The translations under genes and the position numbers were made by a program. This document shows, one piece after another, positions 3,696 to 52,457 of a stretch of 64,000 nucleotides of DNA (position 1 is the first letter of the stretch; the number at the start of each line of letters is the position of its first letter). Origin of the DNA: Candidatus Dojkabacteria bacterium UBA4813. GTDB lineage: Bacteria > Patescibacteriota > Dojkabacteria > SC72. The stretch is from positions 20,408-84,407 of the forward strand of contig DHFX01000006.1 in NCBI GenBank assembly GCA_002402455.1, in the 5' to 3' direction. The notes under the pieces were generated by a model that worked only from the letters and a program-made list of their open reading frames with translations, was not told the DNA's origin and ran no database searches.

Positions 3696-4274
3696 ATGTT
3701 TCAGAAAGAGAAACAGCCAAAATCTATTAACTTCATGGAAACTCTCTACGATCCTAGTGATGTTTGGGATAGTGCGTATATTTGGCTTGTTAGTATAGGG
3801 AAGTATCTTCTAATAGGGGTTCAAATAATAGTTTTAATTGTCTTCTTTTCCAGATTGGTGCTAGATGGAAGAAATAATGATCTAACTGAGGAGATTAACA
3901 ACAAGGTAGTTCTTCTTTCGAACGAAACTTGGAAGAGGAATGCTTTTTTGTTTGAAAATTATCAGATACTTTTAGGAGATATAAAAAATATAAGGGAGGG
4001 GCAGACGATTAACTCTCTTCAAATTAGAGAGCTTATTAGTGGGGTTCCAAGCAATCTTGTCTTAGAGGGACTAAGTTTCAGTGAAAAGCGCGTATCTTTG
4101 CGTCTTAGTTCTAACAATCTAAACAGTGTAAAGGATTACGAATCTTCCCTAAAAAATAATCCAATGTACGAAGATGTGAAGTTTTCAATAACTAAAGAGG
4201 ATGCTGAAATAAGTGTAGGGGTATCTTTTTATTTAAGTGAAGAAGGAGAAGTAAGTGGAAGAGCGGAAAATTAA
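3696..4274 (+). CDS. bitopic membrane protein, PilN-like (type IV pilus/competence assembly) candidate
   Basis: Short cytoplasmic N-terminus, one TM helix (YIWLVSIGKYLLIGVQIIVLIVFF) and a ~140-aa periplasmic domain. Translationally coupled (20-nt overlap) to the next bitopic gene. The PilN assignment rests on topology and size only. Confidence 0.35.
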   Translation: MFQKEKQPKSINFMETLYDPSDVWDSAYIWLVSIGKYLLIGVQIIVLIVFFSRLVLDGRNNDLTEEINNKVVLLSNETWKRNAFLFENYQILLGDIKNIREGQTINSLQIRELISGVPSNLVLEGLSFSEKRVSLRLSSNNLNSVKDYESSLKNNPMYEDVKFSITKEDAEISVGVSFYLSEEGEVSGRAEN

Positions 4275-4869
4275 CACAGCAGAATATATGAAAGTAATTA
4301 AGGAATCTCCCGATAAGAAGAGATCTTATATATTCTTTGGTTTTTCTATTTTAGTATCTATTGTTTTAATATTGTTTGCTATTAGGCCTACGGTGACAAC
4401 TATTGCTAGGATAAATAAAGAAATTAAGGAAAAAGAAAGAGTTAATTCCCTACTTGAAAACAAGATAAATACCCTTAATGAGTTGGATAAGCAATATGTT
4501 CCAAATAAAGAATCTTTTGAGGATTTGGAAATGATTTTTCCTGCAGGTGAGAATTTCAGCTTGCTTCTGGCAAATATGGAGTTGGTGACTACACGCAATG
4601 GACATAAGCTCTCTTCTATAAGTTTTGATGGATATAAAGGGAAAGATTATAATATAATTACAAAGGCTCTCAAGCCCTATACTATGACCTTTAGTGCTAG
4701 GGGAAAAGAGGAAAATATTTTAAATTTCCTACAAGAGCTAGAGGATCTTCCTATGTACCCTGTGATTGAGACTTTTTCCTATTCAACAGAGACGGCGGAG
4801 GACGGAACAAATGCATTTACTATCTCTTTGAGGATATATCATGTAGATAATGTAAATTTTTATAAGTAG
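4255..4869 (+). CDS. bitopic membrane protein with post-TM coiled coil, PilO-like candidate
   Basis: TM helix (IFFGFSILVSIVLILFAI) followed by a coiled-coil segment (INKEIKEKERVNSLLENKINTLNELDKQ) and a C-terminal globular region. Overlaps the upstream gene by 20 nt. Confidence 0.35.
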   Translation: MEERKINTAEYMKVIKESPDKKRSYIFFGFSILVSIVLILFAIRPTVTTIARINKEIKEKERVNSLLENKINTLNELDKQYVPNKESFEDLEMIFPAGENFSLLLANMELVTTRNGHKLSSISFDGYKGKDYNIITKALKPYTMTFSARGKEENILNFLQELEDLPMYPVIETFSYSTETAEDGTNAFTISLRIYHVDNVNFYK

Positions 4870-4872
4870 GAT

Positions 4873-5118
4873 ATGGATATTATCAAAAAAGCAACAGTTC
4901 CTTTGATTATGCTTTTAGTTCTTGTGGTTGTTTGGGTTGGGCTTTACATTTACTATGAGAGTTCCGATATAGAGATTAATCCTCAGGCAGATTCTTATAT
5001 ATCGCAATTACAAAACAGTTTTGACTTAGAAGAATTGGAGGAAGTTAGTAAGAGAACAAAGGATCATTTTCCTGTTCTTCCTGAAGTATTCTTTACTCTT
5101 GTAGGAAGAAGAGATTAG
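4873..5118 (+). CDS. small single-TM membrane protein (81 aa)
   Basis: ATG 3 nt after the upstream stop, with a hydrophobic helix ([20 protein letters not shown]). Its stop overlaps the rpoD stop by 4 nt (convergent). Confidence 0.3.
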
Positions 5119-6222: not shown

Positions 6223-6561
6223 ATGAACAAGAAAGATAATAACACATTCGGAGATAAGGAGTTCTTTCTGGATGCTCTGTCGAAGTTTTGTGATAAGTGT
6301 GGCACTGAGTATCGTCCCGAAGATATTAATATCGTTCAAAACACTGGTGTTTCGGCTATTATACACTTTTCTTGTCATAATTGTAAATCACAGAACCTTG
6401 CTACATACATTTTTCCAATAGGTATGAGTAGTAGATCTCCTTTAAATGTAGATCTTAGCTTTGAGGAACTAAAGAAATTTGCTTCCCAAAACAAGGTTTC
6501 TTTGGATGAGATTCTCGAAGTTTATACACAATTAAAAAAGAAGTCAAAAATCTCTGTTTAA
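6223..6561 (+). CDS. small zinc-ribbon protein (CxxC-x22-CxxC)
   Basis: In-frame ATG at 6223 within track ORF 5953..6561; the upstream part of that ORF is antisense to rpoD and is discarded. CDKCGTEYRPEDINIVQNTGVSAIIHFSCHNCKS forms a four-Cys ribbon. Confidence 0.5.
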   Translation: MNKKDNNTFGDKEFFLDALSKFCDKCGTEYRPEDINIVQNTGVSAIIHFSCHNCKSQNLATYIFPIGMSSRSPLNVDLSFEELKKFASQNKVSLDEILEVYTQLKKKSKISV

Positions 6562-6572
6562 TGGGAAAAGTG

Positions 6573-9569
6573 CTAATTAGGAATTCTCCAAATTACTGGA
6601 AACTCAAGATCCTTGTTGAGTTCAAATCTCCCTGAGAGTTGGTTACTTATACTATTTAATCCGGGAGAACTCTCCAAATTCCATGTGGATGGGTACGTGA
6701 TATCCAGTTTGTAAGCGTACTTCTTTTCTCCGGGTTGTTTAAAGAGGTTTATATCAAAGAATGCATTCTGTTCCTGTATCACAATTGGAAAGTTAGAATC
6801 TCCCTCTTCTCTCTCTATTCTGTAGGAGATATCTAGGGTCTTTATTGACTTAATAGGTGTGTTAAACCAACCACCAATCACTTTAAAACCACTCTCCCTG
6901 TAAACGGAATATTCATTATCTTCAATTCCACTAATTCTTAATATTTTTGCCTGAGGAGGAATGTATATCCTTTGGTAATTTATATAATCTCCTTGTGGGT
7001 AAACATTTTCAGTAGAAGAATTCTCTACAGTTATGGAATATATATAATCTATGGTGTTTTCATCTTTTATATTTATTGTTAGGGAGTAATTTTTATCCAA
7101 ATATAAGTTAGCTTTATTTCCCCCCCAGTTCCAATCTATTGATATTGGGGCATCATTGTATTTATTACTCATGGAATTTGCCCAGTCTTTGGAACTAAAG
7201 AAGTTGTAGGCATCTTTATTTTTAAATGTAGCCTGAAGATGCTTTTCGTTTAAAGTTTTCTCAAAGATGTCTGCTATTTCCATGAGGTCTGTGACATCCA
7301 TAGAAAGTAGCTTTTTAACTATCTCATTTGCGAGATTAGCTAGGAAGGTTGTTTTTTGAGTTGAACCGGGGACAAACTCTTCATGCATTTGGAAAATTTT
7401 ACTGTTGAGATTCTCACTAGTGACAAGTTCTGTCTCTCCGGGGACTTCTATGCCACCCCATCTTTCTAAGAGCTCTTCAATAAAGGAGACATCTATTGTT
7501 ATTACCCCCTCAAGAGAACTACCCTTACCAAGTTCGTAAATAAACGGTTCTGCCTCTGTGAGTGTGTCGGACAGATCGGGATACCAGTTTACCAAAGAGA
7601 ATGGCCAATCAGTTATCTCTAATGCATTAGACATGCTTCTGGGAGGTGTGAATCTTTTGTTCTGAACCTTCAGAGTCCCATCTGCATTGTATATATCGTC
7701 AACGAAAAGTTCTCTTATTTGACCTCCTTCTATGCCTATAATTCCGTAACTTGTTAGCCAACCACCCGTACTTCTAATCTCTCCTTCGTTTTGGAAGAGA
7801 ACAAGGTATCTTTTCCTTTCATCTACTCCGAGGAGGTCTGGGAGGAAAGAGTTCACTGCTTTAAAGGATTCGGTTCCTTCTTCAATCTGAGAGATAATTT
7901 CTTTGAACTCTACTATCTTGTCTTGTAAAACCTTTGGAAAGACTGTTGTATTAAGGTTTGTTATTATCTCAGAGGCTAGGGAGATTCTGTAATCAGCCTC
8001 TTCTAGTTTATAACTGTTTTTCTCCATCTCCTCTAAGTAACTCCTATATTCTCTTGTTGTTGTGGGAGTGGAAGTTTGGAAATCCAGAGCGGGTTCAAAA
8101 TCCTGCATATATTGTGTTAAGGGGTATATAGCATCTACTAATTGTCTAGCTCCTTGTGTGGTGTATTGAGCTCCGAGAATTAACTGCGTAGTGTTGTCAT
8201 ACAGTTCGTCTTTTCCTAATAGTTGAAACATCCAGTACATCTGGTCTACGCTCCGTCCTACTCTGTCAACATTTTTCTCTAAGGGTTCTATTTCCTGAGA
8301 GCTTTGTATTTGACCAATGTCTAAGATTGAAATTGAAAGGTTTTTAACAGAGGAATTAATTAAAAGCAACCCTATCAATGTCCCAACTATTGGATATATT
8401 ACAAAATAAGTCACTGCTATTAGTAAGATAGTTGTTAGAAAAATTTTTATTGTCTTTTTTGTATCTATCTTTTTTTCTTTCGTTTTCTCGGAGACTTTTT
8501 TAAATGGAGAAAGAATGGAAAAAAGGAATTCTCCAAGCTTGGTTTTTCCTACTTTAACGGTCTTTTTTTGTTTTATCTTTTGTGGAGTTTTATTTATGTC
8601 CCATGTCTTATTAGTTGCCTCGTAGTACTTCTGTATCTGTTCTACAAGGGCTTCTTCAAGATCTACCTGTTGACTCCAACCATAGTTTGAAGCATGAGGT
8701 GCTGGAACATAAAGATCTTGAATAAGAAATTGTTCTTGGGGATTCTCTACAAAACGGATAGTCTGCGCCTCTGTGTTAAGTTCCAAAAGTTTGTAAGCTA
8801 ATGAAAGGGTTGTATAATTATTCTTATTAGCCAAAGATATTACTTCTCCTTTGGTGTTGTCCGAGAAAGATAATTTTAATATCCCATAGGTAGCGTCTGC
8901 CTCATGTATCAAGGAGTGTAGATCTAGCCCTTCCCCTTTTATAGTGATCTGATTTCTCTGGACGGAGTCAGTAAGAAGGTTGTCTAAAATTTCATTGTTT
9001 ACTTTCTCTATTCCCCTGCCAATAATGGTTCCGAGTCTAATGATTCTAAGGTTAATATTAGATTTATCTCTAAACTCTGCAACTAGCGTCTCGCAATATT
9101 TTTGAAGTTCCATTGCAGAGTAAGGAGATGGTGTGGACAGTTGTTCGTTGTTTACCCTATTTGCTAATTCTCTGTTTAGTGCGAGGGAGGTAATTAAAGA
9201 GAATTTCCCATTGTTTTTTCTAGTGTTAGTAAGTGTTTCCTCTAGAATTTTAGTTTCATTTAGGAACTCTTTGCTGTCAAATTCTTTTTTATCTAGTCTC
9301 TCATTTAGAAAATAGAAAAGGTAATCAAACCTTTTAACGTTTTTAAAGAGGGAATTAAATCCCTTAAAATCAAAAAAATCAAAAAGTTCAGATTTTTTAA
9401 GTTCTGAGAGATATCTCCTGGTTTTACTGTTAAATTTGTCTATTATAACAACATAACAACCTTGGTCTATAAGAGTTTTGGCTGTTAAATAACCTACCCT
9501 GTTTCCACCATGAATTATTATGGCTATCGGTGTTTGTGGACTTATTTTGTTTAATCGTAAATTACTCAT
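6573..9569 (-). CDS. 998-aa envelope protein: N-terminal NAD(P)-binding Rossmann-like domain, TM segment, large extracytoplasmic domain
   Basis: IAIIIHGGNRVGYLTAKTLIDQGCYVVIID is a GxxGxxG Rossmann signature. A hydrophobic stretch (IKIFLTTILLIAVTYFVIYPIVGTLIGLLLI) lies near residue 375. A ~600-aa C-terminal region contains a GGWLTSYG motif and, from memory only, resembles the DUF4012-type domain seen in cell-wall polysaccharide loci (unverified). Confidence 0.55.
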   Translation of the reverse strand: MSNLRLNKISPQTPIAIIIHGGNRVGYLTAKTLIDQGCYVVIIDKFNSKTRRYLSELKKSELFDFFDFKGFNSLFKNVKRFDYLFYFLNERLDKKEFDSKEFLNETKILEETLTNTRKNNGKFSLITSLALNRELANRVNNEQLSTPSPYSAMELQKYCETLVAEFRDKSNINLRIIRLGTIIGRGIEKVNNEILDNLLTDSVQRNQITIKGEGLDLHSLIHEADATYGILKLSFSDNTKGEVISLANKNNYTTLSLAYKLLELNTEAQTIRFVENPQEQFLIQDLYVPAPHASNYGWSQQVDLEEALVEQIQKYYEATNKTWDINKTPQKIKQKKTVKVGKTKLGEFLFSILSPFKKVSEKTKEKKIDTKKTIKIFLTTILLIAVTYFVIYPIVGTLIGLLLINSSVKNLSISILDIGQIQSSQEIEPLEKNVDRVGRSVDQMYWMFQLLGKDELYDNTTQLILGAQYTTQGARQLVDAIYPLTQYMQDFEPALDFQTSTPTTTREYRSYLEEMEKNSYKLEEADYRISLASEIITNLNTTVFPKVLQDKIVEFKEIISQIEEGTESFKAVNSFLPDLLGVDERKRYLVLFQNEGEIRSTGGWLTSYGIIGIEGGQIRELFVDDIYNADGTLKVQNKRFTPPRSMSNALEITDWPFSLVNWYPDLSDTLTEAEPFIYELGKGSSLEGVITIDVSFIEELLERWGGIEVPGETELVTSENLNSKIFQMHEEFVPGSTQKTTFLANLANEIVKKLLSMDVTDLMEIADIFEKTLNEKHLQATFKNKDAYNFFSSKDWANSMSNKYNDAPISIDWNWGGNKANLYLDKNYSLTINIKDENTIDYIYSITVENSSTENVYPQGDYINYQRIYIPPQAKILRISGIEDNEYSVYRESGFKVIGGWFNTPIKSIKTLDISYRIEREEGDSNFPIVIQEQNAFFDINLFKQPGEKKYAYKLDITYPSTWNLESSPGLNSISNQLSGRFELNKDLEFPVIWRIPN

Positions 9570-10212
9570 CTTTTATTTCTACTGATTCAAAATGTACAGG
9601 TATGGGGAAAAGAAAAGTTTTAAGGTTAAGAACATAATTGTTTTGTAGTAGCACTGGGACTTCTACTTCCTCATGTCCGGGTGCCAATACCTTTATCTCA
9701 TATTGTCCTTCTCTCAATCCGAGGTTTGTGATTGGGCTAACTTTTAAAAATTCTCCATCCAAGAAGATTCTTGAATTATCGACATTACTTATTACAGTCA
9801 GAAATCCTTCATCAGAGGTTGTCCTGATAGGGGTATAATAAAGAATAACACCATGCAAGAGATCCTCTGGACCCATTTCTAGATCTATTCTTGCTGAAGT
9901 GTTTCTTATCAGTTCTATTTGAAACGAATGCTTCTTGTAAAAAGCTTCCTCGTCAGCTATTTTCTGCAACTCTATTAGGTAAGATCCTTCTGGGAGGTCT
10001 TCAATACTTGCAGGAGTTTCCCCATAATCTTCTCCATTAATCCAGATCTTAGCAACTCCTGCTTTGGTGCTAATTTCTAAGGTTGTATTGTTGTAAAAAC
10101 GATTAACAAAAGGGAGTTTCCCTATTAGTTGATTAATTGGGATGAAGTAGAGTAAAACAGAGACAGCTAGTATTAAAAAAATCGTTATTAGGGCAATTTT
10201 ATTCTTTTTCAT
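9562..10212 (-). CDS. PEGA-domain membrane-anchored protein
   Basis: N-terminal signal anchor (IALITIFLILAVSVLLYF). Two PEGA-like beta-sandwich motifs (GETPASIEDLPEGSYLIEL and SPITNLGLREGQYEIKVLAPGHEE). Overlaps the downstream gene by 8 nt. Confidence 0.55.
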   Translation of the reverse strand: MKKNKIALITIFLILAVSVLLYFIPINQLIGKLPFVNRFYNNTTLEISTKAGVAKIWINGEDYGETPASIEDLPEGSYLIELQKIADEEAFYKKHSFQIELIRNTSARIDLEMGPEDLLHGVILYYTPIRTTSDEGFLTVISNVDNSRIFLDGEFLKVSPITNLGLREGQYEIKVLAPGHEEVEVPVLLQNNYVLNLKTFLFPIPVHFESVEIKDE

Positions 10213-10268: not shown

Positions 10269-11477
10269 CTAGTAGGAATATTTAGATTCTGGGCTTTCTT
10301 TCTTCTCCTGCTCCTCCTTTTTTTTAGATGCTCTTATGTTTATGTAAACAATGAAAGCAATTCCTAGTGCGAAGGAGATTATGAGTGTAAAGTATCTGAG
10401 AGCACCTGTTGTTAAAATGGCAAACGATCCGAGGAAGAGAGTTGCAGACATTTCTATTAGGACAAGTTGTGATCTAGATACGTTTAAATTCATTAATTGG
10501 TGATGTAGATGATCCGGACCACTTATCTTCATTAACTCCCATATATTCTTAGGTTTGTGTGTTAAAAGCCTTTTTATTATTACATAAATAAAGTCTATTA
10601 AAGGTAACATTAGAAGCATCATGGTTGTTGAAATTTTTGCATCTGCCACGATAGCAAGAATACAGATAAGAAAACCGTAAACAGATTTTCCTGCAGAACC
10701 GGTCATTATCTTTTGAGGAGGAAAAGCAAATATTAAAAACGCAAGTAATCCCCCGGCAATTAAAATACTTACTGTAGAAGAGAAAGTAGACATATCTCTC
10801 ATAGCAATAATGAATATTAATGAAAAGATTACAAAGGAGTTAGCCTCAATTATCCCAGGAGAACCCGCTGTCCATTTTACTGCGTTTATACAAACAAGTA
10901 TCCAGAAGAAAAGAAAGATGTCTCCCGGTAGAGCAAGAGATTGTTCTATTCCAAAAATTGAGAAATTATATGTGAGCGAGCTTAGATCTAAATTAAGGAG
11001 AGGAATAGAGGAGATATTTAGTACTGAAAAAGCAATTATTCCTGCAGCAACAATCTGGTAGATAAGTTGAACCCTTGCAGGGAGGTTGAATATGTCATCT
11101 AAAGTGGCGCCCACCATAAGAACAAAAAGAGATATTACAATAGGTAGTGTAAAGCTATCCATTTTGAAAAATACCAGTATTGCAATAAATGCCGGTAATG
11201 TTATTGCTAATCCTCCTAAGGAAGGTGTTATGCCTTCATGAAGGGCTTTAAGAGGGTTGTCAAACTCTTTCTCTCCTCTCCCTTTTTGGGGAATATAGGT
11301 AATATTAAATTTTAAGGCAATGTGTCCGAGTATTGGCGTTAGGAAGAAAGATATAAGAAAACCTATCAGAAATATTGGCCAATATTCCACATACTTTTCA
11401 TATGCAGTATCCTGTATGAACTGAGGAACTCTGCTAAGTAATCCTGTCAGGAAAGCCGTTGTTGTAGATAAGTCCAT
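10269..11477 (-). CDS. polyprenyl-phosphate N-acetylhexosamine-1-phosphate transferase (GT4; MraY/WecA/TagO family)
   Basis: About ten TM helices, a DD-containing loop (GATLDDIFNLPARVQL) and a C-terminal HLHHQL motif typical of the PNPT superfamily. Sits with PEGA/LCP-type envelope genes, not a dcw cluster. Confidence 0.65.
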   Translation of the reverse strand: MDLSTTTAFLTGLLSRVPQFIQDTAYEKYVEYWPIFLIGFLISFFLTPILGHIALKFNITYIPQKGRGEKEFDNPLKALHEGITPSLGGLAITLPAFIAILVFFKMDSFTLPIVISLFVLMVGATLDDIFNLPARVQLIYQIVAAGIIAFSVLNISSIPLLNLDLSSLTYNFSIFGIEQSLALPGDIFLFFWILVCINAVKWTAGSPGIIEANSFVIFSLIFIIAMRDMSTFSSTVSILIAGGLLAFLIFAFPPQKIMTGSAGKSVYGFLICILAIVADAKISTTMMLLMLPLIDFIYVIIKRLLTHKPKNIWELMKISGPDHLHHQLMNLNVSRSQLVLIEMSATLFLGSFAILTTGALRYFTLIISFALGIAFIVYINIRASKKKEEQEKKESPESKYSY

Positions 11478-11478
11478 A

Positions 11479-11949
11479 TTAAAAAAGGTTTACTATGTCA
11501 ATTAAAATAAGACTCTGTGAGATGCTAGATAGCAAGGAGGAGAAAAGAAGAAGTCTGGTTAGTTTCTTTTCGTTATTATAATATCTGGAAGTAAAAAAGA
11601 GGGAGAGCAACAATGCTATTAGGGAAATCAAAGGAAATATAAATATATAATCTTTTTGTGTAAGTTTCGCTTCTGCGGATAAGAGATATCTAAATATTGG
11701 AACATACCTCGGCAGGTTCGAAAGATTTACAAAAATAAGGTAGATTTGTTGAGCTATCAAGACAAGGCCTATGGTAAGTGTTGCCCAAACAAGAGGATCC
11801 TTCAAGAACTTTCTAACTTCAAACCTCAATACCGCAAAGTCTACGGATCTCTTTATTTTGAAAAATCTGTTCTTAAAGGGTTCTTTTATGCCTAAGTTCA
11901 ATTGTTTAGACTCTTCTTGAGGTTCCTTCTTACTCTTTTCCCTTTTCAT
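11479..11949 (-). CDS. hypothetical polytopic membrane protein
   Basis: Basic N-terminus followed by three hydrophobic helices. No recognisable motif. Confidence 0.35.
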   Translation of the reverse strand: MKREKSKKEPQEESKQLNLGIKEPFKNRFFKIKRSVDFAVLRFEVRKFLKDPLVWATLTIGLVLIAQQIYLIFVNLSNLPRYVPIFRYLLSAEAKLTQKDYIFIFPLISLIALLLSLFFTSRYYNNEKKLTRLLLFSSLLSSISQSLILIDIVNLF

Positions 11950-15408: not shown

Positions 15409-16356
15409 TTATTGACAGAGAAGTTGTCCTTCTTCTATTTTGCAGGTTAGTTCTGCGACCCCAGTTGTCTGGTTTGTTTGCCATTCTATGGGAGCGTTGT
15501 TGAAGTAGATTCTTGTGTTTTTTATTCTCCCGGTAATGATGTAGAGATTCTCTTTAATGGCGAATTCTTCTTCCATAGGTTCTAGTACTTGTGAAATTTT
15601 ATTCTCCCCATCTATATCCAATCTTACCCATGCGGGGGAGTCAAAGACTTCTAGCTTGATAATATTTTCTTTCACTTCTTTGTTTTGTTCTTCCTCTTCT
15701 AATTGTGTCTTCGCAGAATATGTTATGTTAAGGGTTTCAATTTTCTCCAAAGCGTTGTTTTTTCTCGCTTTAATGGTTATCGTGTTAAGTCCTTCTTTTA
15801 GAGTGATTTTGTAACTAAATTCTCCCTTTTCATTTGTTTCTACAGTTGTTCCATTTATTTCGATAATACTCTCTAGGTCGGTTTTTCCATTTACCGTAAT
15901 ATCTTCGGTTTGTACTTTGCTATCTGGAATGGGGCTCGATATTTCTAATGATGGTGGTCTCTGGAATTTGTATATTTGAGAGCCTATATAAGCAAAGATT
16001 CCCAGAAGAAATATTGTGAGTAGGATTGTTATTATTAATTTCGGTTCAACGGTTATTTTCTGTTTTAATTTCTTAGAAGATATCGGTTCTACGTTCTTGT
16101 TAGAGATATCTCTTGGAGTTTTATTAGGGTTACTTCTTCTGTATAGGGCGAGTACTTTGCTTGTGTCTAACTCTAGGTATTTTGCGTATATCTTAATAAA
16201 GCCGGTTAGAAAGACCTCTGAATCGAAATATTCAAATTGATTATTTTCGATATATTTAAGAAACCGCTTCTGGACTTTAGTGTCAGCGGAAACTTTTTCT
16301 AGTGTTTTTCCAAGTAACTCTCTCTTATTTTTTAAGACTTCTCCTGCGGTAATCAT
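15409..16356 (-). CDS. RodZ-like cytoskeletal membrane protein (N-terminal HTH, single TM, C-terminal beta domain)
   Basis: N-terminal XRE-type HTH (GEVLKNKRELLGKTLEKVSADTKVQKRFLKYIEN). TM segment (LIITILLTIFLLGIFAYIG). Extracytoplasmic C-terminal domain. Confidence 0.5.
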   Translation of the reverse strand: MITAGEVLKNKRELLGKTLEKVSADTKVQKRFLKYIENNQFEYFDSEVFLTGFIKIYAKYLELDTSKVLALYRRSNPNKTPRDISNKNVEPISSKKLKQKITVEPKLIITILLTIFLLGIFAYIGSQIYKFQRPPSLEISSPIPDSKVQTEDITVNGKTDLESIIEINGTTVETNEKGEFSYKITLKEGLNTITIKARKNNALEKIETLNITYSAKTQLEEEEQNKEVKENIIKLEVFDSPAWVRLDIDGENKISQVLEPMEEEFAIKENLYIITGRIKNTRIYFNNAPIEWQTNQTTGVAELTCKIEEGQLLCQ

Positions 16357-32162: not shown

Positions 32163-34493
32163 ATGTTACAAGAATCCACGCAAAATTCTAGAGAAGGAAT
32201 AAATATCTCAACCATACAGAAGTTTCTATTCAAAGGGCTATTATTTTTGCTCCCTCTAACTATTTTCCCCTTCCCTTGGGATTGGACAGAAAGAGGAATG
32301 TCTCTGTTGATACTCTTTGTTTCAACAGTAATCTTGGGTTTAGAGGTTATAAAGCTTCTCTGGGGAGGTACTTTCAGTATTCTAAAGAGTTCAATAGATA
32401 TAGGTTTTTTTCTAATCTTGTTCTCATATTTGTTGTCAACAATCTTCTCAGTAGATATAAACACTAGTCTATGGGGAATCGATGGAAGGTTGGGAAGTGG
32501 ATTAATTGTGTTTATTGCTGTTTTATTAGTAAGTATAGTCGCAAGAGGATTTATAAAAGGGGAAAAAGATGTTCGTTCTCTCATATTTATTTTTTTAATT
32601 GGCTTCTTTATTAATAACGTGTTGAGCTTGTTCTCTTTCTTCGGGTTTAATGTTTGGGGATTTATTCCTGTTTATAAAGACTTATATCAAGCAGGATTGC
32701 CTCTGTTAAGATTTGGAGGTGTCCATCTTCTTGTAAATTTTGTTAGTCTAATTCTTTCTCTAGGACTAATAGGTGAATATCTAATAAGTCAGAAAAGAAA
32801 GGTAGAATTTATAATGTCCATAATTTTTGGACTTTTTTCTGCAATAAATGTCTGGGTATTTTCTATCAATGAGGGTTTGGTAACAATCTCCGTTCTATTA
32901 GTTCTATTGATAGGATTATTGATCCCAGTGCTGAAATTTATAAAAATAGATAAAGAAACCTCGCGTCAGGTATTTCTTCTCTCTTTAATAACTGTTTTTA
33001 TAGTCATTATTCCCGTAATTTTCTTGCAAATTCCGAACATTAGGGAATCTATTTTACCTAAAGATTTAGAGGTAGTTTCCGAGCTTTCTCTCGGATTTGA
33101 CCTTTCTTGGAAGATTTTTGCTTCTACTATTGTTAATGGATTTGTACCGGGATTCTTAGGATATGGTTTGGGAACATATCCGATTGCATATAATAAATTC
33201 AAACCGTTAGATACAGGGCTTCTTTCTTTAGGGGACTCTACTTTTCAAATGGGGGTAAGCGAGGTTCTTACAAAAATTACTACTGGGGGATTTCTGTGGT
33301 TTTTTGTTTGGCTCTTTGTAGGGTTTTTAATAATCAAGTCTTTCATAAAGGATCTTAAGGATGCAAGAGAAATAAATGACACTAGTGGAGCTTGGAGATT
33401 TTTAATAATAGATGTTACATTACTGGTATTATTCGTTGCCTCTTTCTTCTTTTCATTTACTGTTTTAATAACTTTCTTACTACTAACTTTGGTTTCCATC
33501 CGGTCAATAATAAGAGAATATTTAAAGGGTTCTCCTGGGGATAAATTCATATTAAAGTTCTGGGCTGTTAATTTGGATAGTCTATCTAGTGGAAATAAGT
33601 CTTTATACAACTTTAATATTTTTCTGACGGTTATTGTCGCTATCATATCCGTATTTTTACTCGGAGTCTGTTTCACAAAAACAGTATCAAGCTTCCATGT
33701 TTTAGGGGCTGAGGCATACTCGATTAGAGAAAATAGAAAATATCAGGACGATCCGGAGGCTCAGCCAACACTTGAGGAAAGAGAGAAATTTGCGCTAGAG
33801 GTAGATAACTATTATTCTAAGGCTTTAGCTCTAGATGAGGATAACCCTTTTTACAATAGAAAGAAGGCGCTTATTCTACTAGAACAGTTGGGTGTTGTTG
33901 CAGAGGCATACTCTAAGATACCCGAAGAAGATACGGAACAGAGAGACCAATATCTACAAGCAATTATGACTCTTAAGAACAATGCCGTGGAATTCGCAAG
34001 AAAAGCAACAGATATCTCTCCGGCTGTTTATGCTAATTGGCTGACAAGATCAACAGTTTATACTGGTCTGGTGGGAGCAGGTTTTGATGAGCATATATCT
34101 GATGCTATAAATTCATTAGAGATGGCAATAACTCTCAATCCTCTTAACTACCAACTTTACAATACACTTGCCCAAGTTTATATAGTAAAAGGGGATCAAG
34201 CAGTTGCACTACAGTATCTATTAGAAGTTCTTCGTATTAATCCGAGACATATTCCTTCTATACTTCTAGCTGCAGACTTAAGTAAAGAAGCAGAAGATAT
34301 GGAGTCATATGTAGCTTACCTAGAGGCAGCAAAATTGATCCTTGAACAGGAAGAAGCTACGGAACTGGACCTTTACCAAGAAGTACTTACTGCTCTTGAG
34401 GAAGCTGATGCTGGGGATGTAGAATTACCAAAGGAACCTGAAGAAGGTGGGGAGGTAGGGGTACCAGAGCCGGATTCGGAGGTTTCTGAATAG
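32163..34493 (+). CDS. polytopic membrane protein with C-terminal TPR repeats (O-antigen ligase/Wzy_C-like architecture)
   Basis: About 12 TM helices in the first ~500 aa, then TPR-like helical repeats and an acidic tail (EEADAGDVELPKEPEEGGEVGVPEPDSEVSE). The family call is by architecture only. Confidence 0.45.
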   Translation: MLQESTQNSREGINISTIQKFLFKGLLFLLPLTIFPFPWDWTERGMSLLILFVSTVILGLEVIKLLWGGTFSILKSSIDIGFFLILFSYLLSTIFSVDINTSLWGIDGRLGSGLIVFIAVLLVSIVARGFIKGEKDVRSLIFIFLIGFFINNVLSLFSFFGFNVWGFIPVYKDLYQAGLPLLRFGGVHLLVNFVSLILSLGLIGEYLISQKRKVEFIMSIIFGLFSAINVWVFSINEGLVTISVLLVLLIGLLIPVLKFIKIDKETSRQVFLLSLITVFIVIIPVIFLQIPNIRESILPKDLEVVSELSLGFDLSWKIFASTIVNGFVPGFLGYGLGTYPIAYNKFKPLDTGLLSLGDSTFQMGVSEVLTKITTGGFLWFFVWLFVGFLIIKSFIKDLKDAREINDTSGAWRFLIIDVTLLVLFVASFFFSFTVLITFLLLTLVSIRSIIREYLKGSPGDKFILKFWAVNLDSLSSGNKSLYNFNIFLTVIVAIISVFLLGVCFTKTVSSFHVLGAEAYSIRENRKYQDDPEAQPTLEEREKFALEVDNYYSKALALDEDNPFYNRKKALILLEQLGVVAEAYSKIPEEDTEQRDQYLQAIMTLKNNAVEFARKATDISPAVYANWLTRSTVYTGLVGAGFDEHISDAINSLEMAITLNPLNYQLYNTLAQVYIVKGDQAVALQYLLEVLRINPRHIPSILLAADLSKEAEDMESYVAYLEAAKLILEQEEATELDLYQEVLTALEEADAGDVELPKEPEEGGEVGVPEPDSEVSE

Positions 34494-44364: not shown

Positions 44365-45960
44365 ATGAAGTTAAGCTTTAGAAAGGATTTACATATTGCT
44401 ACTTTAAGATCTGAATCTTCTTGGAATAGATTTAGGGTACAGACGTTGCTTCAAGATACAGAGAGAAAACAGCCATCTATTAATGCTTATCTGGGAGCAA
44501 GATATAGTAGGTCTGCGGATTCCATTTTAGATATAGCCTCTGAGATTATGAGGGAGAGTACGGATGCAGCGGAGAAGTTAGAAAAAATATTCGCAGGTTA
44601 TGGTCACAAATCTGTAGGAGATATGGCAGATCTTTTTGTCTGTTTAGAAAATGTACCAATATATCTTGAAACAAAAATGTTTTATTCTTGTCCGGTAATA
44701 TCTGGGCAAGGTAGGTCTACTAGATACCAGAACTTTCAAGATCCTAACTTCGTCAAAATTCCTAATGAGGTTTGTGATAACCACGAAGTTAGTAGAGAGT
44801 ATGAGAGGATAATGCTAAAGCAGATTAAAGATTACAGGGAGATGCTAGGTCCTACTAGAGATGCCCTTAAAAAATACTTTAGGATAAATGAGGAGAGTAG
44901 TCAGGAGGTTTCTGCTCTAAAGGCAAGGGCATTCGATACTACTAGGTATTTTTTACCGTATGGTTTGAGTACAAGTAGTGCTTATTTAATGTCAGCAAGA
45001 AGTTGGTCTGATGCCATCAGCTTTATGTGTGCAAGTGATACTGTGGTAGAAAATGAGGTTGCAAGTATGCTTCTTAATCTTCTAGGTGAATCTAAACTTA
45101 ATGCAAGGGGTTATATCAGAGAAGCAGATGGACTAATTAGGCATACGGATGCAAATTGTTGTAGAAAAAACTCAACAGAAAGAATTATTGAGTATATGAA
45201 AGAAAGTTTCTCTTCAGAGCAAAAGAGGGAGATTCCTGAGAGTGAAAGTTATTCTGTCAAGGTATCTTATTCTCCCGATTGTATGGAGTCTTTGGTCTCC
45301 CATTATGAATATTTAATAAACCCATTGGGTTCTAAAGAGGAGTTTGAATTCTCTGAGGAGGATCAGGAGAGATTTGGGGAAATAATATTTGAATTACATG
45401 ACCATCATAGCCAGCTTGGGAATATTGGTCAGTCTGGAGCAATAAAGATAGAGGGGTTTGCTTCACTTGGAACGCTAAAAGATCTTAATAGGCATAGGAG
45501 TTTTGAGAGGTTTATTCCTTTTCTACATGAGCAAGTGGATATGGATAAAGAGTTAGACAGGAGGAGTGACCAGTGTTTCTATCTTTGTAATTATTTGGAT
45601 ATAGGGTCTCTTTCTAAGGTTAAGAAGGAGTATATAAAGAGATTATCTGATACGTACGACAGGATAAAGGGTTGGAGGGAGATGGCAAAGCAACATCTTT
45701 CCAAAGAGGTGTGCGATGAATTTACAAAGTATTTGTTACCTCATGCGCATGCAACTAAGTATATATTTTACGGATCGTTCGATGATTTACAATATCTGAT
45801 AAACTTAAGAAGTAGAAATGGTGGACATATCTCTTATAGGGTTTTAGTCTACGAATGGTTAAGGAATCTCAACTATATTGATCCTATTTGGAGACCATTA
45901 TTAAGAAAGATTATAGAGCCAAGAATAGATGACAAGCATCAGTTTGTAGATAGGAGTTAA
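44365..45960 (+). CDS. thyX: flavin-dependent thymidylate synthase-like protein, apparent tandem (double) ThyX domain
   Basis: The first half carries GYGHKSVGDMADLFV...STRYQ, which aligns to the ThyX HGHETPFEH...SGRYS block but lacks the RHR motif. The second half carries NRHRSFERF (RHR) without the S-x-RY block. At 531 aa it is about twice the canonical ThyX length. Confidence 0.5.
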   Translation: MKLSFRKDLHIATLRSESSWNRFRVQTLLQDTERKQPSINAYLGARYSRSADSILDIASEIMRESTDAAEKLEKIFAGYGHKSVGDMADLFVCLENVPIYLETKMFYSCPVISGQGRSTRYQNFQDPNFVKIPNEVCDNHEVSREYERIMLKQIKDYREMLGPTRDALKKYFRINEESSQEVSALKARAFDTTRYFLPYGLSTSSAYLMSARSWSDAISFMCASDTVVENEVASMLLNLLGESKLNARGYIREADGLIRHTDANCCRKNSTERIIEYMKESFSSEQKREIPESESYSVKVSYSPDCMESLVSHYEYLINPLGSKEEFEFSEEDQERFGEIIFELHDHHSQLGNIGQSGAIKIEGFASLGTLKDLNRHRSFERFIPFLHEQVDMDKELDRRSDQCFYLCNYLDIGSLSKVKKEYIKRLSDTYDRIKGWREMAKQHLSKEVCDEFTKYLLPHAHATKYIFYGSFDDLQYLINLRSRNGGHISYRVLVYEWLRNLNYIDPIWRPLLRKIIEPRIDDKHQFVDRS

Positions 45961-46587: not shown

Positions 46588-47730
46588 TTACATTGTTGGA
46601 GGTACGGGAGGGATCTCCTCTGGAGTATTATCTGTATCTTGGTTTTGTTGTGATGTTATTGGTGGCATATGTGGTTGTGGGCGTTCAGGCATGATATTCT
46701 CAGGGGTTTCCTGTTGTGGTGAAACAGAAAATCCTGTAGAGAAAGGAACATTCTGGTTAGGTTGTGGAGCCTGCGGAGTGCTATCTCCCATAGCTGTTGG
46801 AATAGAGGATTCCCTTTGAAGAATTTCCTGCAAATCCTCTTCTTGAGAGGCACTCGAAATTGGGGGGGTATTTTGTTGTGGAGGTGTGTATATGGGTTGT
46901 TCTGGTGTCGGTTGTGTATTTTGACTCATTGGTGTTGGGGGAGTCACTTCTGCTGGTGGTGGTGTGGTCTGTGTCGGTGCACTATTAGGATTATTTACCA
47001 TATCTCTGAGAAATGTTTCACTCTGTTGCTCCGGTTGTATTACGGGAGGAATCTGGTTTTGTTCTGCTTTCTTTACCTTAGGCTGTTTTGGTTCTTTGTC
47101 CTTCCTGAGCAGTAGAACCACTATGCTAATAAGTAAGATTACGGATCCTGCAATTAATATGTATGGTAAGTAGTTAGTTATACTGTCTAGTAAACTTGTT
47201 TTTGTTGTTGTAGTTGGTTGTTCTGTTGTTACAGCTGGAGTCTCCTGTACAGTTGGAGTTTCAGTAGCTGTCGGTTGTGTATCTTCTGTCGTGGATACAG
47301 TATTTGTTTGTTCAAAACTGACGGTTTCTCCCAGAGTAAGGGTACCAAGATCTAAATCGTCGGATTCAACCACTTCAAAAGTTGTAGGGGTATCTCCCGT
47401 GGAGGTAAATGCAATATTAGCCAGTACTCCATTTAGTGCTGTTGCTGAGTCCAATTTACATGTTACCAGTATGGTGTTTACAGTCCCTTGGGATTCGGTA
47501 TAACTTAACTCTGAACAAGCAACATCTCCGTCTGTAACATCCGTTATTTCAACACCGTCTGAATAGCTTATTGGAAGGGTAACACTTTCTAGGGTATCAG
47601 TCTCTGTATCTATCCCAATTGCTACATTCCCAGTTTCACCTTCTCTAAGTGTTATATTTACGGCAGCATATGTTGCGAACGGGAACATAAAGACAATAAA
47701 AGAGACCAAAAGGGAATATATTTTTTTCAT
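46588..47730 (-). CDS. single-pass surface protein: signal peptide, beta-rich ectodomain, Thr/Pro stalk, TM, Pro/Gln-rich cytoplasmic tail
   Basis: MKKIYSLLVSFIVFMFPFATYA signal peptide. A TTEDTQPTATETPTVQETPAVTTEQPTTTT stalk. TM helix LPYILIAGSVILLISIVVLLL. A ~170-aa P/Q/T-rich C-terminus. Confidence 0.5.
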   Translation of the reverse strand: MKKIYSLLVSFIVFMFPFATYAAVNITLREGETGNVAIGIDTETDTLESVTLPISYSDGVEITDVTDGDVACSELSYTESQGTVNTILVTCKLDSATALNGVLANIAFTSTGDTPTTFEVVESDDLDLGTLTLGETVSFEQTNTVSTTEDTQPTATETPTVQETPAVTTEQPTTTTKTSLLDSITNYLPYILIAGSVILLISIVVLLLRKDKEPKQPKVKKAEQNQIPPVIQPEQQSETFLRDMVNNPNSAPTQTTPPPAEVTPPTPMSQNTQPTPEQPIYTPPQQNTPPISSASQEEDLQEILQRESSIPTAMGDSTPQAPQPNQNVPFSTGFSVSPQQETPENIMPERPQPHMPPITSQQNQDTDNTPEEIPPVPPTM

Positions 47731-49123: not shown

Positions 49124-49381
49124 TTATATTCCTCTAAATGGATTTGAAAGTCTCAGAGAGTCGGCAGCTTTTCTGACTTTAGAGCTCTCCATCCTTCTAG
49201 GAGTAGTTGATCTGTTTTGTTGCTTCTCTTCCGCTTTTGATAATAGGTAAAGGTCCATTCCTTTCTGGATTGGGTCTATCTTTTGAGGATTAACAGCTTC
49301 TGTTACTAGATAATTAGAGACTTCGACATTGTTATTGTTCGTATTAGAGTTGCTCATTCTTATCCTCCGGATAACTTTCAA
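49124..49381 (-). CDS. small Asn-rich hypothetical protein (85 aa), doubtful
   Basis: Overlaps the 3' end of the VirB4 gene by 38 nt in another frame and is low-complexity (NSNTNNNN). It may not be a real gene. Confidence 0.2.
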   Translation of the reverse strand: MKVIRRIRMSNSNTNNNNVEVSNYLVTEAVNPQKIDPIQKGMDLYLLSKAEEKQQNRSTTPRRMESSKVRKAADSLRLSNPFRGI

Positions 49382-51818
49382 TTAAACCTTGTGGAGTCAG
49401 ATGTTCTTTCCCCTTCTGGATATCTTTGCGAGATTGCACTGCCTGACCGGAGAGGGTGTTACTCTTAATTCTATCTAAGATTCCCTTTTCCATTTCGGTT
49501 TTATCAGGACTTAATTGTTCTTCTTGTTCTTTTAATCTCTTTTCTAGTTCTTTTTGGTATTCTGCTCTCTCCATCTGTATGGTGCTTCTTTGTCCCTGTG
49601 TTCGTTTTACAGCTTCTTCAATAATTTCTTCCTGTCTTGCCATTTCTTCTCCATTTTTCATTGGTCTTTGTTCTGTCGGAGGTTCATATATTTCAGATAA
49701 TTGTTCTAAAGTTCTGGTATCTGGCTGACCCTCTCTTGTTTTAAGCTTTTCTAAATCTCTAGGGTCAGAAGTTATTAATTCATGTTCTGATACGCTGGAC
49801 AGTACTTGAATTCCCACGTGGTTTGAGCCTGCAAAGAAGAGTCCTTGTCCTTGATCACAGTTAAGGAGGAAGTTTTTTTCTCCATCTGAGAGATTAAAGA
49901 CCTCTTGTAGTTTTTCTACTGCTGTTGGACTTTGCATCATGAGCATTTGTATGGAAGAGTTTGAAATTATTGCCTTACCCATGTCATTGTTTAGGAAGTC
50001 CGCAACATCCTGAGTTATTGTGGACAGACCAAGGTAGTATTTCCTTGCTCTTTTTGCTATAGAGTACATAAATTTAGCAGAGTCTTCGGACTGCATCATA
50101 TACCAAGCCTCATCTACTATGAGTAGTCTTCTTTTTCTCTCCTTTCTAATCTTAGTCCAAATGAAGTCTAGCATTAGATACATAGCAAGGGGTTTTAATT
50201 CTTCCTGCAGGTCTCTAACACTAAAGACTGTAAATGGATTGTCTATCTCAAAGTTGCTTGCCTCATTGAAAACTCCGGCACCACTACCAATAATATATTT
50301 TTCCAATCTTCTTGCCAGACCATGTGCTTCTGTTTCTGCCATTCCCTTTAAGACTTTATATAAATCTTCAAGGAGTGGAGGAGTTTTAGTTTGAGTGTTA
50401 GGGTCGAATGTTATTCCTTTCTCACGATATGTGAGTATGAGAGCTCGATCCAGAATAGAGCTCTCAATATTGCTAAGTTCTCCAAGCATAACTTTGAAGA
50501 AACCTTGTAAAGCCAAGAGTTTCATTCTTAATTCATCATCTCCTTCTTCTGTCACACCGGAGAGTTCGAAAGGATTCATTTTATTTCCTTTGTCTTGTGA
50601 GAAGGAGATGTAGGCACCATTAACGGCTTTAGCTAAACTCTCGTACTCCCTTTCTGGGTCAATTATTAATATTTCTGTTCCCAACATTAGACTTCTTACG
50701 GCCTCGAGCTTAACGAAATAGCTCTTACCCGCACCGGATTTTGCAAAGACTACTGTGTTAGCATTTTCTAGTTCAAAGCGATCGAAGATTACCAAACTTC
50801 TGTTGTGTAGGTTTAATCCGTACATAATTCCATGATCCATGGTAAGTTCAGATGTAACAAAGGGAAAAGTTGTTGCGAGAGAAGTAGTATCCATATTTCT
50901 AGTTATGTACATACTATCTAGTCCGAGGGGTTGGCAACTTATGAATCCCTGCTCCTGTTGTAAGGTTGCAGGTTTTGCAGTTACGTTTATTGCGGCTAGA
51001 GTTGATGTGACATTCCTGGAAATTCTCTCAAGAGTATCTTTGTCTTTTGCATAGAGGGTTATATACATTGAGAAGTGGAAAAATTTTTCTGTTCCCTCTG
51101 CAATAGAATCCTGTAACTGCTGAGCATCTGCGAGTGCCACTTTTAGTGAAGGGTCTATAACTTTCCTTTCTTCCATTTGAGAATAAAGGGTAGCTTCCAT
51201 CTCTCCGATTTTCTTTTTGAGTTTTTCTAAAATAGTTTTGTTGTCTACCGGATAATAGAAGGTACTGATTCTTAATGAGTGTTCGAAGTTGATTATGGGG
51301 GAGAGCCAATTAGGACCAACAAATCTTGGGTATCCACTCACAAATAATGTTTTGAAGAAGTAATCTCCTATTTGTAAGTTGTTAAAATCCACTTCTAGGT
51401 CTATTGGGGCAATGATGTCTTGTATAGACATATCCGAAGGAATTAATTTCCTAACACTATGTGGGTCGTTATTTACATATCTGGTTTCCCAAGAACTTTC
51501 TTCTTCAGTTGTTTCTTCTTTAGATTTTTTCTTGTTAGAGTGCCCGAGTAGTTCGGTAACGTTATCCATGACATTTGTGATAATATTCCCTTTTTTCTTT
51601 TTTTCCTCCTCTTCTAGAGATTTTGTATCATTGTATCTGTCCTCCTTTCCCTCGGGGATGTTTTTAGCTTCCTCTTTAAGTTTTGAAACTTCCTGTCGGA
51701 ATGAGGCATACTTTTCACCGGTTGTTTTAAACTTTTCGGTTTGCTGTTCCAACTTTTGAGTTGTCTTTGTTTCCAGTTGTTTGTTGTAGTTGTTGTAGTT
51801 ATTATTTATGCCATCCAT
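49344..51818 (-). CDS. virB4: VirB4/TrbE/CagE-family type IV secretion ATPase
   Basis: Walker A FAKSGAGKSYFVK and Walker B LLIVDEAWYMM. A Gram-positive-type VirB4 N-domain block (GDYFFKTLFVSGYPRFVGPNWLSPIINFEHSLRISTFYYPVD). Preceded by a ~120-aa charged low-complexity N-terminal extension. Confidence 0.85.
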   Translation of the reverse strand: MDGINNNYNNYNKQLETKTTQKLEQQTEKFKTTGEKYASFRQEVSKLKEEAKNIPEGKEDRYNDTKSLEEEEKKKKGNIITNVMDNVTELLGHSNKKKSKEETTEEESSWETRYVNNDPHSVRKLIPSDMSIQDIIAPIDLEVDFNNLQIGDYFFKTLFVSGYPRFVGPNWLSPIINFEHSLRISTFYYPVDNKTILEKLKKKIGEMEATLYSQMEERKVIDPSLKVALADAQQLQDSIAEGTEKFFHFSMYITLYAKDKDTLERISRNVTSTLAAINVTAKPATLQQEQGFISCQPLGLDSMYITRNMDTTSLATTFPFVTSELTMDHGIMYGLNLHNRSLVIFDRFELENANTVVFAKSGAGKSYFVKLEAVRSLMLGTEILIIDPEREYESLAKAVNGAYISFSQDKGNKMNPFELSGVTEEGDDELRMKLLALQGFFKVMLGELSNIESSILDRALILTYREKGITFDPNTQTKTPPLLEDLYKVLKGMAETEAHGLARRLEKYIIGSGAGVFNEASNFEIDNPFTVFSVRDLQEELKPLAMYLMLDFIWTKIRKERKRRLLIVDEAWYMMQSEDSAKFMYSIAKRARKYYLGLSTITQDVADFLNNDMGKAIISNSSIQMLMMQSPTAVEKLQEVFNLSDGEKNFLLNCDQGQGLFFAGSNHVGIQVLSSVSEHELITSDPRDLEKLKTREGQPDTRTLEQLSEIYEPPTEQRPMKNGEEMARQEEIIEEAVKRTQGQRSTIQMERAEYQKELEKRLKEQEEQLSPDKTEMEKGILDRIKSNTLSGQAVQSRKDIQKGKEHLTPQGLIESYPEDKNEQL

Positions 51819-52456: not shown

Positions 52457-52457
52457 C

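Follow-up and report, generated by a model that had tools for sequence, protein, structure and literature searches.

An LCP-like fold predicted for the extracytoplasmic core of a DUF4012 membrane protein with a degenerate, epimerase-like cytoplasmic domain in Candidatus Dojkabacteria

The window studied here is a stretch of 64,000 nt from Candidatus Dojkabacteria bacterium UBA4813 (contig DHFX01000006.1, positions 20,408 to 84,407 of the forward strand). On its minus strand, the open reading frame (ORF) at 6573..9569 encodes a protein of 998 aa that belongs to the family DUF4012 and whose extracytoplasmic alpha/beta core is predicted to have the fold of the LCP (LytR-CpsA-Psr) phosphotransferases. 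Here, we describe the domain architecture of this protein, the loss of catalytic residues from its cytoplasmic domain of the short-chain dehydrogenase/reductase (SDR) type, the LCP-like predicted fold and a conserved gene neighbourhood. With middling confidence we propose that the DUF4012 protein acts in an LCP-like manner on a glycan linked to polyprenyl pyrophosphate (polyprenyl-PP) outside the membrane, and that its cytoplasmic domain is non-catalytic and binds a nucleotide or nucleotide sugar, or serves as a scaffold. By sequence the protein does not belong to the LCP family, yet it resembles LCP proteins in predicted fold, placement and context. An earlier annotation made from the DNA letters (the sequence-only reading) had suggested a role in cell-wall glycopolymer assembly or as a scaffold; this suggestion is supported, and the predicted fold of the core is added to it.

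The gene comprises 998 codons with an ATG start, as given by the ORF list and its translation, and a stop codon at 6573-6575; the sequence-only reading had placed it at the same coordinates without naming the strand. Pfam matches and full-length homologues describe the product as a bitopic membrane protein in which a pseudo-SDR domain, a transmembrane (TM) helix and a DUF4012 ectodomain follow each other. Among the families that the sequence-only reading had named as candidates, DUF4012 (PF13196) was matched at residues 583-721 (61.1 bits, the cut-off being 28), and Epimerase (PF01370) at residues 25-234 with 22.9 bits against a cut-off of 20.9, while Pfam gave no match to the CapD-type family Polysacc_synt_2 (PF02719) anywhere in the 998 aa. 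The DUF4012 model is also matched by 23 of 23 aligned homologues.

In detail, residues 1-320 (8610..9569, this and all following segments on the minus strand) form a cytoplasmic extended-SDR domain, similar to UDP-xylose synthase and catalytically degenerate according to sequence matches in the PDB and column statistics. Charge count and sequence delimit a cytoplasmic linker rich in Lys and Arg at residues 321-375 (8445..8609), with a conserved KTKLGEF at 342-348, which leads into the single TM helix at residues 376-403 (8361..8444). The extracytoplasmic part starts with a helical-bundle stalk or accessory domain (residues 404-580; 7830..8360), continues with the alpha/beta core, which carries the Pfam DUF4012 region and a conserved polar cluster (residues 581-808; 7146..7829), and ends with residues 809-998 (6576..7145), consisting of the DWNWGGNKAN loop (812-821) and a C-terminal beta-sandwich. 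Within Dojkabacteria, the mean identity is 68.2% for the SDR-like domain, 67.5% for the core, 47.5% for the helical stalk and 37% for the linker, the least conserved segment of the protein.

The membrane topology was derived from a Kyte-Doolittle scan and from the flanking charges. The region at approximately 376-403 is the only stretch exceeding a value of 1.6 (peak 2.37), and 11 Lys and Arg residues flank it on the N-terminal side versus 4 on the C-terminal side. By the positive-inside rule, this favours an N-in/C-out orientation with 595 residues (404-998) outside, which agrees with the single TM helix and the outside domain of about 600 aa postulated by the sequence-only reading. The large domain was thus not placed in the cytoplasm, and the protein could not be clearly assigned to a family with one known function.

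The LCP-like, alpha-beta-alpha fold of the core emerged from structure prediction. An AlphaFold2 model of residues 404-998, built with 82 homologues, reached a predicted local distance difference test (pLDDT) value of 83.5 and a predicted template modelling score (pTM) of 0.81; a model of the core only had a pLDDT of 77.4. In the larger model, the ectodomain consists of a helical bundle (404-580), an alpha/beta domain (approximately 581-808) holding the DUF4012 region, and a beta-sandwich (809-998). Low pLDDT values are seen in the invariant loop STGGW (600-604), as expected of a mobile loop. For the predicted core, the first eleven ranks are all held by LCP-type chains, aligned over 147-177 residues, with rank values of 11.4 for 3pe5, 9.3 for 3okz, 9.0 for 2xxp, 8.9 for 6uf6, 8.7 for 5v8c, 8.5 for 6uex, 8.4 for 4obm, 8.0 for 9gn3 and 7.7 each for 3owq, 9cy9 and 3mej. 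Ten of these eleven chains, all except 4obm, were verified as LCP proteins by sequence, the query being a synthetic consensus of LCP proteins. This consensus recovers the top-ranking 3pe5 (E 4e-38) together with TagT/U/V, Cps2A, LcpA/MsrR and BrpA, and 3pe5 is therefore an LCP-family protein. A Foldseek search of the whole ectodomain against the PDB matched the beta-sandwich alone (N-domains of M1 aminopeptidases and OST1, TM-scores of 0.17-0.21) and missed the link to LCP proteins. When the PDB was searched with a profile of the mixed family alignment, SDR matches dominated the result, which did not inform the core. What we claim for the DUF4012 core is a resemblance in fold and not homology to the LCP enzymes.

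Residue conservation was assessed over 126 members of the family. Among the polar residues, conservation is highest for Q593, N594, E597, R599, D625, Y627, D630, N661, N720, K739, K776, N814, K819 and N821. The polar cluster of the core also counts K724 (Lys or Arg in the family) as well as G602 and G603, which occur in 125 and 126 of the members, respectively. The family signature QN.xE.R.TGG[FW]..SY is present (Q593, N594, E597, R599, G602, G603, S607, Y608), and its residues other than the two glycines are each found in 89-104 members. N814 and K819 of the DWNWGGNKAN loop are conserved family-wide. These polar residues group where beta-1 ends, within the loop joining beta-1 to beta-2, behind beta-3 and on a pair of helices, and their mixture of acidic, basic and amide side chains is in keeping with a site for metal and phosphate. 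The motifs YSAMELQK (150-157) and GGWLTSYG (602-609), to which the sequence-only reading had drawn attention, are both present.

The conserved set clearly differs from the LCP arginine triad (PMC7831098). In Cps2A, the residues binding pyrophosphate and Mg2+ are R267, R362, R374, D371 and Q378 (PMC7831098). Alignments of DUF4012 with LCP profiles by hhalign are of low confidence and collinear, and in them conserved DUF4012 residues fall near LCP catalytic motifs: E597-x-R599 lies near DxR/RSD, D625 near PRD, K/R724 near RxR, and G735-S-x-x-K739 opposite GDxxR. The only segment aligned with any confidence at all pairs DGVIxI(D/N)..F...LL...G(G/P)I of DUF4012 with YYxxV(D/N)F.GF..(L/I)ID..GG(V/I) of LCP proteins. 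The basic residues R599, K/R724 and K739 and the acidic residues E597 and D625 would thus stand at roughly matching places in low-confidence alignments only, and the equivalences between the DUF4012 cluster and the LCP motifs are putative.

A search of solved structures with the single protein yielded weak matches to extended SDRs, namely 8rdg (E 1e-7) and the human UDP-glucuronate decarboxylase UXS1 (E 2e-5), whereas a profile including distant family members matched UXS1 with E 1e-56 over residues 11-332, that is, over the whole fold. This broad-profile match indicates that the N-terminal domain descends from a UDP-xylose-synthase-like enzyme. Residues were mapped by alignment to UXS1 and 8rdg and by column counts over the 126 diverse members. 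The NAD loop reads H20-G-G-N23-R-V-G26 (HxxNxxG), so that two of the three glycines of GxxGxxG are replaced; the form HxxNxxG is found in all Dojkabacteria. A literal N-terminal GxxGxxG, reported by the sequence-only reading, does not exist in this loop (HGGNRVG): the pattern has no match in the N-terminal domain and only one in the whole protein, at residue 609. This was the sole factual error of that reading, and its view of the Rossmann domain as epimerase-like and perhaps degenerate holds, since the catalytic Tyr and Lys are gone along with the two glycines. The position of the catalytic Tyr corresponds to A152 in the register of UXS1 and the family (column numbering) and to M153 in the pairwise register of 8rdg, neither of which is Tyr; in the former register, only 4 of 127 members have Tyr in the column. 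Across all Dojkabacteria it is Ala or Asn, and the position of the catalytic Lys is an invariant Gln (Q156). Y150, located three to four residues upstream, was considered as a displaced catalytic Tyr and rejected, the position being Phe in 23 of 126 members. Retained features are D44 at the end of beta-2 (123/126 members), the Ser/Thr position (T127/S128) and the ExKRxAE signature of the family.

These residues bear on a rival explanation, in which the protein is bifunctional, its N-terminal domain supplying the pathway as an active epimerase, dehydratase or decarboxylase of nucleotide sugars. The automatic name given by the Joint Genome Institute (JGI), 'nucleoside-diphosphate-sugar epimerase', the Pfam Epimerase match just above its cut-off and the alignment of the whole extended-SDR fold to UXS1 with D44 and Ser/Thr retained speak for it, as does the intact GxxGxxG loop in 40 of 126 distant members, the Lys also being kept in 37 of those 40. 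The Dojkabacteria proteins, all with HxxNxxG, Ala or Asn for Tyr and invariant Gln for Lys, and the near absence of Tyr from its column in the family at large make this explanation barely credible, and the active epimerase was rejected because its catalytic residues are absent. A dehydratase of the CapD/WbpM type was likewise rejected, on the grounds of the missing PF02719 match, the reversed domain order and the lost catalytic residues. As judged from these columns, the cytoplasmic domain is a UXS-derived pseudo-enzyme that should be incapable of SDR redox chemistry. Despite the lost residues, it is as conserved as the ectodomain core, which marks it as a pseudo-enzyme under strong purifying selection.

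The neighbourhood of the gene was compared across Dojkabacteria at species level, using 70 loci for which sufficient DNA upstream was available. A module of four genes in the order small TM protein, glycosyltransferase family 4 (GT4) transferase, PEGA protein and DUF4012 protein is conserved in 64-69 of them, which bears out the adjacency to PEGA and GT4 phosphotransferase genes noted by the sequence-only reading. In the window, all four genes lie on the minus strand. The first (11479..11949) encodes a protein of 156 aa with a basic N-terminus and, by TM scan, 3-4 TM spans, without a match in Pfam or NCBIfam; it is possibly a small membrane component of the module, with a flippase or an accessory subunit as candidates. 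It is present in 69 of the 70 loci and always precedes the GT4 transferase. The latter (10269..11477; Pfam Glycos_transf_4, E 2e-15) is a polyprenyl-phosphate N-acetylhexosamine-1-phosphate transferase (PNPT) of the WecA/TagO/MraY superfamily. The protein is multi-TM and carries the motifs DD and HLHH, and a loop of the HIHH type is a mark of HexNAc-1-P transferases. WecA is its closest NCBIfam model (55.9 bits, compared with 25.4 bits for MraY, both below the cut-off), and it is likely the priming enzyme of the module. Its gene occurs in 69 of the 70 loci and adjoins the PEGA gene in 64. The PEGA gene (9562..10212) encodes a membrane-anchored protein of 216 aa with two PEGA domains (Pfam, E 4e-18) and a TM span at 2-33, and it lies immediately upstream of the DUF4012 gene in 69 of 70 loci. 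Its stop overlaps the ATG of the DUF4012 gene by 8 nt, which suggests that the two genes are translationally coupled. The SDR domain is fused to the DUF4012 protein in 70 of 70 loci.

In more distant relatives, the company of the gene is of a similar kind. The PEGA gene is still located upstream of a 28%-identical relative, and genes for a Wzy_C protein and a Wzx-type flippase are found just upstream of fusions with approximately 22-24% identity. From these neighbours and the priming transferase it follows that the DUF4012 family accompanies the enzymes for starting, flipping and polymerising glycans on a polyprenyl carrier, a position that an LCP ligase usually takes in Gram-positive loci. 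In addition, a 37%-identical relative (locus L004, 10033-11613) has a PGA_cap (CapA-like) gene after its SDR-DUF4012 gene, with overlapping ends, which hints at varying downstream partners of the module. Downstream of the DUF4012 gene in the window, with a gap of 11 nt, follows a convergent gene for a zinc-ribbon protein (CxxC...CxxC) of 112 aa without a family match (6223-6561, plus strand), which is divergent from rpoD and conserved in 68 of 70 loci. The mechanical ORF list gives this gene as an ORF of 202 aa starting at 5953, and the best sigma-70-like match for an rpoD promoter (6387-6358, 11/12) falls inside it.

Taken together, the proposed LCP-like action of the DUF4012 protein could proceed as follows. 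The WecA/TagO-like transferase encoded two genes upstream would prime polyprenyl phosphate on the cytoplasmic face, and the lipid-linked glycan would be flipped outward, where the LCP-like core may bind the polyprenyl-PP-glycan. The core would then transfer the glycan or glycan-phosphate to an acceptor of the wall or surface, or cleave the glycan from the lipid, using the family-wide polar cluster (E597, R599, D625, D630, N661, N720, K/R724, K739, N814 and K819) for the chemistry. Helical stalk and beta-sandwich would hold the core in place, with probable binding of the acceptor by both, the PEGA protein could be a stoichiometric partner or the acceptor itself, and the cytoplasmic pseudo-UXS domain probably binds a nucleotide or nucleotide sugar or serves in docking, so as to link the protein to the cytoplasmic steps. 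We infer that the lipid-PP-glycan is bound, how it is transferred and to which acceptor, and what the cytoplasmic domain does.

Several observations weigh against this proposal. The fold assignment depends on predicted models from an alignment of 82 sequences of a single lineage. Pfam gave no match to PF03816 (LytR_cpsA_psr) at E<=1 in the 998-aa protein, and four hhalign runs of DUF4012 against LCP profiles of rising diversity returned probabilities of 3.3-7.7% and P values of 0.0045-0.013; a search for further LCP homologues brought up almost nothing but Bacillus TagU and contributed little diversity, and one run took the Dojkabacteria LCP protein of the same window. Of the LCP arginine triad, only R599 is Arg, the other candidates being Lys or Lys/Arg. 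The topology was read from charge bias alone. The remaining neighbours are housekeeping genes (ksgA, dnaG, ftsK, rpoD), so that the synteny may partly reflect the generally conserved gene order of a small genome, and a shared gene order carries less weight when the genome is streamlined than when it is large. Finally, the same genome possesses a canonical LCP protein, hence an LCP-type ligase function is not otherwise missing. This protein (62220-63665, minus strand; PF03816, E 7e-37) comprises 481 aa with a long C-terminal extension, bears all classical motifs (LDTR, TDT, PRD, RSRR, SDFARAKRQQ) and is conserved in Dojkabacteria, where it shares contigs with the homologues of the DUF4012 protein. 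The two proteins are therefore not mutual substitutes.

Some of these points suit another explanation, in which the protein is a non-catalytic scaffold or regulator of a Wzx/Wzy-type or PNPT-initiated pathway and its core binds lipid-linked intermediates or nothing. Such a protein could be an auxiliary envelope protein or a co-factor of chain length or export that signals across the membrane to the pseudo-SDR domain. The arginine triad not kept as Arg, the insignificant similarity to LCP profiles and the canonical LCP protein fit well with this, and the whole protein could be non-catalytic in the way its cytoplasmic domain already is; the tight coupling to PEGA suggests a structural complex, and a DUF4012 gene of Bifidobacterium longum is labelled an auxiliary protein beside wzz (PMC5412050). 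The invariant residues E597, R599, D625, D630, N720, K739, N814 and K819 together with a flexible GG loop look more like an active site, however, and Pfam revealed no similarity to the Wzz and polysaccharide co-polymerase (PCP) families, whose members have two TM helices versus one here. A co-polymerase of the Wzz/PCP type was rejected for want of a family match and on account of the single TM helix. We regard the non-catalytic explanation as possible, though unlikely.

The coexistence with a canonical LCP protein also touches on the kind of reaction. LCP enzymes act on the linkage made by such priming transferases and display pyrophosphatase activity (PMC7831098). A release enzyme would use this activity: the DUF4012 core would hydrolyse the polyprenyl-PP-glycan and thereby free exopolysaccharide or recycle stalled intermediates, and the canonical LCP protein would perform wall attachment. 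The occurrence of both proteins in all sampled Dojkabacteria contigs makes such a division of labour plausible, and DUF4012 is found in loci for exopolysaccharides and capsular polysaccharides (EPS/CPS) (PMC5412050). On the other side, beta-sandwich, stalk and PEGA partner speak for contact with an acceptor or macromolecule; the present data do not separate hydrolysis from transfer, and we give release as the specific function only a slim chance.

The fusion is widespread. Full-length homologues of 994-1006 aa with 49-100% identity come from many assemblies of Candidatus Dojkabacteria (candidate division WS6; Patescibacteria/Candidate Phyla Radiation, CPR), one record being named Microgenomates. 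Scanning the species genomes of GTDB brought up 308 loci that encode a relative, and the best 80 all belong to metagenome-assembled genomes of the Dojkabacteria/WS6 type. Many GTDB records titled 'uncultured Candidatus Saccharibacteria' hold a Dojkabacteria-type locus with 70-94% identity and the same synteny (e.g. L008, L010, L011, L013); these titles from bulk submissions seem generic and unreliable as taxonomy. An exhaustive search of 1.84 billion cluster representatives with a profile of the full-length fusion gave 9,775 matches at E<=1e-3, which may mix SDR-only and DUF4012-only proteins, and 2,587 at E<=1e-30. Among the best 150 matches, nearly all have approximately 950-1100 aa and cover both the SDR and the DUF4012 parts, so the same architecture exists in at least about 150 clusters at 50% identity. 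The fusion is therefore a large and old family and no local accident, and by this measure the conservation of the ORF is not due to chance. The DUF4012 family (fam000574, Meheust et al. 2019) has been described as enriched in CPR and Gram-positive lineages (PMC6744442) and is tied to polysaccharide loci (PMC5412050). In the literature, no paper was found that gives DUF4012 a function, a fold or a link to LCP; the fold link may stand in structure-classification databases.

DUF4012 is a large uncharacterised family that is reported to be characteristic of CPR and of Gram-positive-type envelopes (PMC6744442), and the predicted LCP-like fold next to priming transferase, Wzx and Wzy genes leads to the biochemically testable hypothesis that its members process lipid-PP-linked glycans. 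The envelopes of CPR bacteria, whose cells are not growable alone, are almost unstudied, and the module points to a conserved four-gene system for a wall or surface glycopolymer. A conserved, catalytically dead UXS-like domain in the cytoplasm that is fused across the membrane to an enzyme-like envelope domain is an unusual case of a pseudo-enzyme. In a wider sense, DUF4012 could be a second, unrecognised LCP-type branch that attaches or releases polyprenyl-PP-glycans in CPR, Actinobacteria and other monoderms, with the pseudo-enzyme of the CPR form (approximately 1000 aa) sensing a nucleotide sugar or docking the priming transferase; we put this forward as a speculation with a small chance of being right. 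If true, precursor supply inside would be mechanically coupled to glycan ligation outside, and one polypeptide would link the first and the last steps of wall glycopolymer synthesis. LCP enzymes are candidates for antibiotic targets, and a parallel family would matter in Actinobacteria.

The rest of the window is ordinary housekeeping DNA of a small genome (leuS, metG, rpoD, ksgA, dnaG, ftsK, rpoBC, dnaK, groEL, murJ, thyX and others). Scans of the window for promoters (24 versus 22.5 expected) and terminators (8 versus 5.8 expected) were at chance level, and Rfam gave no match in it. A cluster resembling type IV secretion or conjugation systems at 49344-53279 (minus strand) consists of a VirB4/TraG-type ATPase (824 aa), a protein of 212 aa and a member of the PrgI family that has an EMC7-like beta-sandwich; in a distant relative (L007, 4276-9684), the SDR-DUF4012 gene directly adjoins a similar set of PrgI, TraC-like and TraG genes. 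Three small single-TM proteins of 192, 204 and 81 aa (3696-5118, plus strand), a set conserved beside rpoD in other Dojkabacteria, are probably components of type IV pilus assembly: the 192-aa protein matches PilN weakly, the 204-aa protein has a faint match to ComGE, and the counterpart of the latter in L002 matches PilO weakly. The ThyX (Thy1) protein at 44365-45960 (plus strand) has 531 aa, approximately twice the usual length, and two matched stretches, as if a flavin-dependent thymidylate synthase had been duplicated in tandem or fused. At 15409-16356 (minus strand), a RodZ-like protein (HTH_25 and RodZ_C) contains an inserted module similar to Glucodextranase domain B; this ORF has 76 nt in common with the end of the dnaG ORF, and probably either it or dnaG truly starts downstream of the first in-frame start codon. 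Three large ORFs have next to no family match and are typical CPR 'dark' proteins (46588-47730, minus strand, 380 aa; 59381-61174, minus strand, 597 aa; 32163-34493, plus strand, 776 aa), the 776-aa ORF having a single weak TPR match.

Among known systems, the cytoplasmic domain is best compared with UXS1 (PDB 4gll, 2b69) and 8rdg. Residues 1-320 align with these enzymes across the whole extended-SDR fold, and ExKRxAE, the beta-2 Asp (D44) and Ser/Thr are retained. In contrast, the catalytic Tyr is replaced family-wide, the Dojkabacteria proteins have Gln for Lys and lack two of the three NAD-loop glycines, and a TM helix and an ectodomain are attached to the domain. With WbpM, PglF and CapD the protein shares a membrane-attached extended-SDR domain in a pathway for polyprenyl-linked glycans beside a priming transferase. 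Those proteins, however, carry TM helices at the N-terminus and an active SDR domain at the C-terminus and possess no ectodomain, so that the order is reversed here.

For the ectodomain, a comparison can be made with the DUF4012 protein BL105A_0406 from the EPS/CPS locus of B. longum 105-A, whose gene, like that of the present protein, has a priming transferase gene in its neighbourhood, being located between the latter and wzz (PMC5412050). With approximately 576 aa (1730 bp), it is too short for an SDR-like domain of 320 aa, whereas the present protein and at least about 150 clusters have the cytoplasmic UXS-like pseudo-enzyme fused to the N-terminus.

The LCP enzymes themselves (TagT/U/V of B. 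subtilis, Cps2A of S. pneumoniae, LcpA of S. aureus and LcpA of A. oris) appear to share with the DUF4012 protein a layout in which an alpha/beta domain outside the cytoplasm comes after an N-terminal membrane anchor, and the present gene is located near a polyprenyl-phosphate priming transferase, whose product is processed by LCP enzymes (PMC7831098). As in Cps2A, an accessory domain is inserted between membrane and catalytic domain. In LCP enzymes the polyprenyl chain sits in a hydrophobic tunnel, and their pyrophosphatase or phosphotransferase activity towards lipid-PP-glycans depends on Mg2+. The differences are that the present protein has neither a PF03816 match nor a significant profile similarity, and that the LCP motifs LGxDxR, RSD, PRD, RxR and GDxxRxxRQQ stand against QNxxExRxTGG, DxYNxDG, PGSxxK and NxGxNKAN. 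A canonical, paralogue-like LCP gene coexists in the genome, and the DUF4012 protein is about twice the size of LCP enzymes, as it additionally contains the helical stalk, the beta-sandwich at its C-terminus and the cytoplasmic pseudo-SDR domain of 320 aa.

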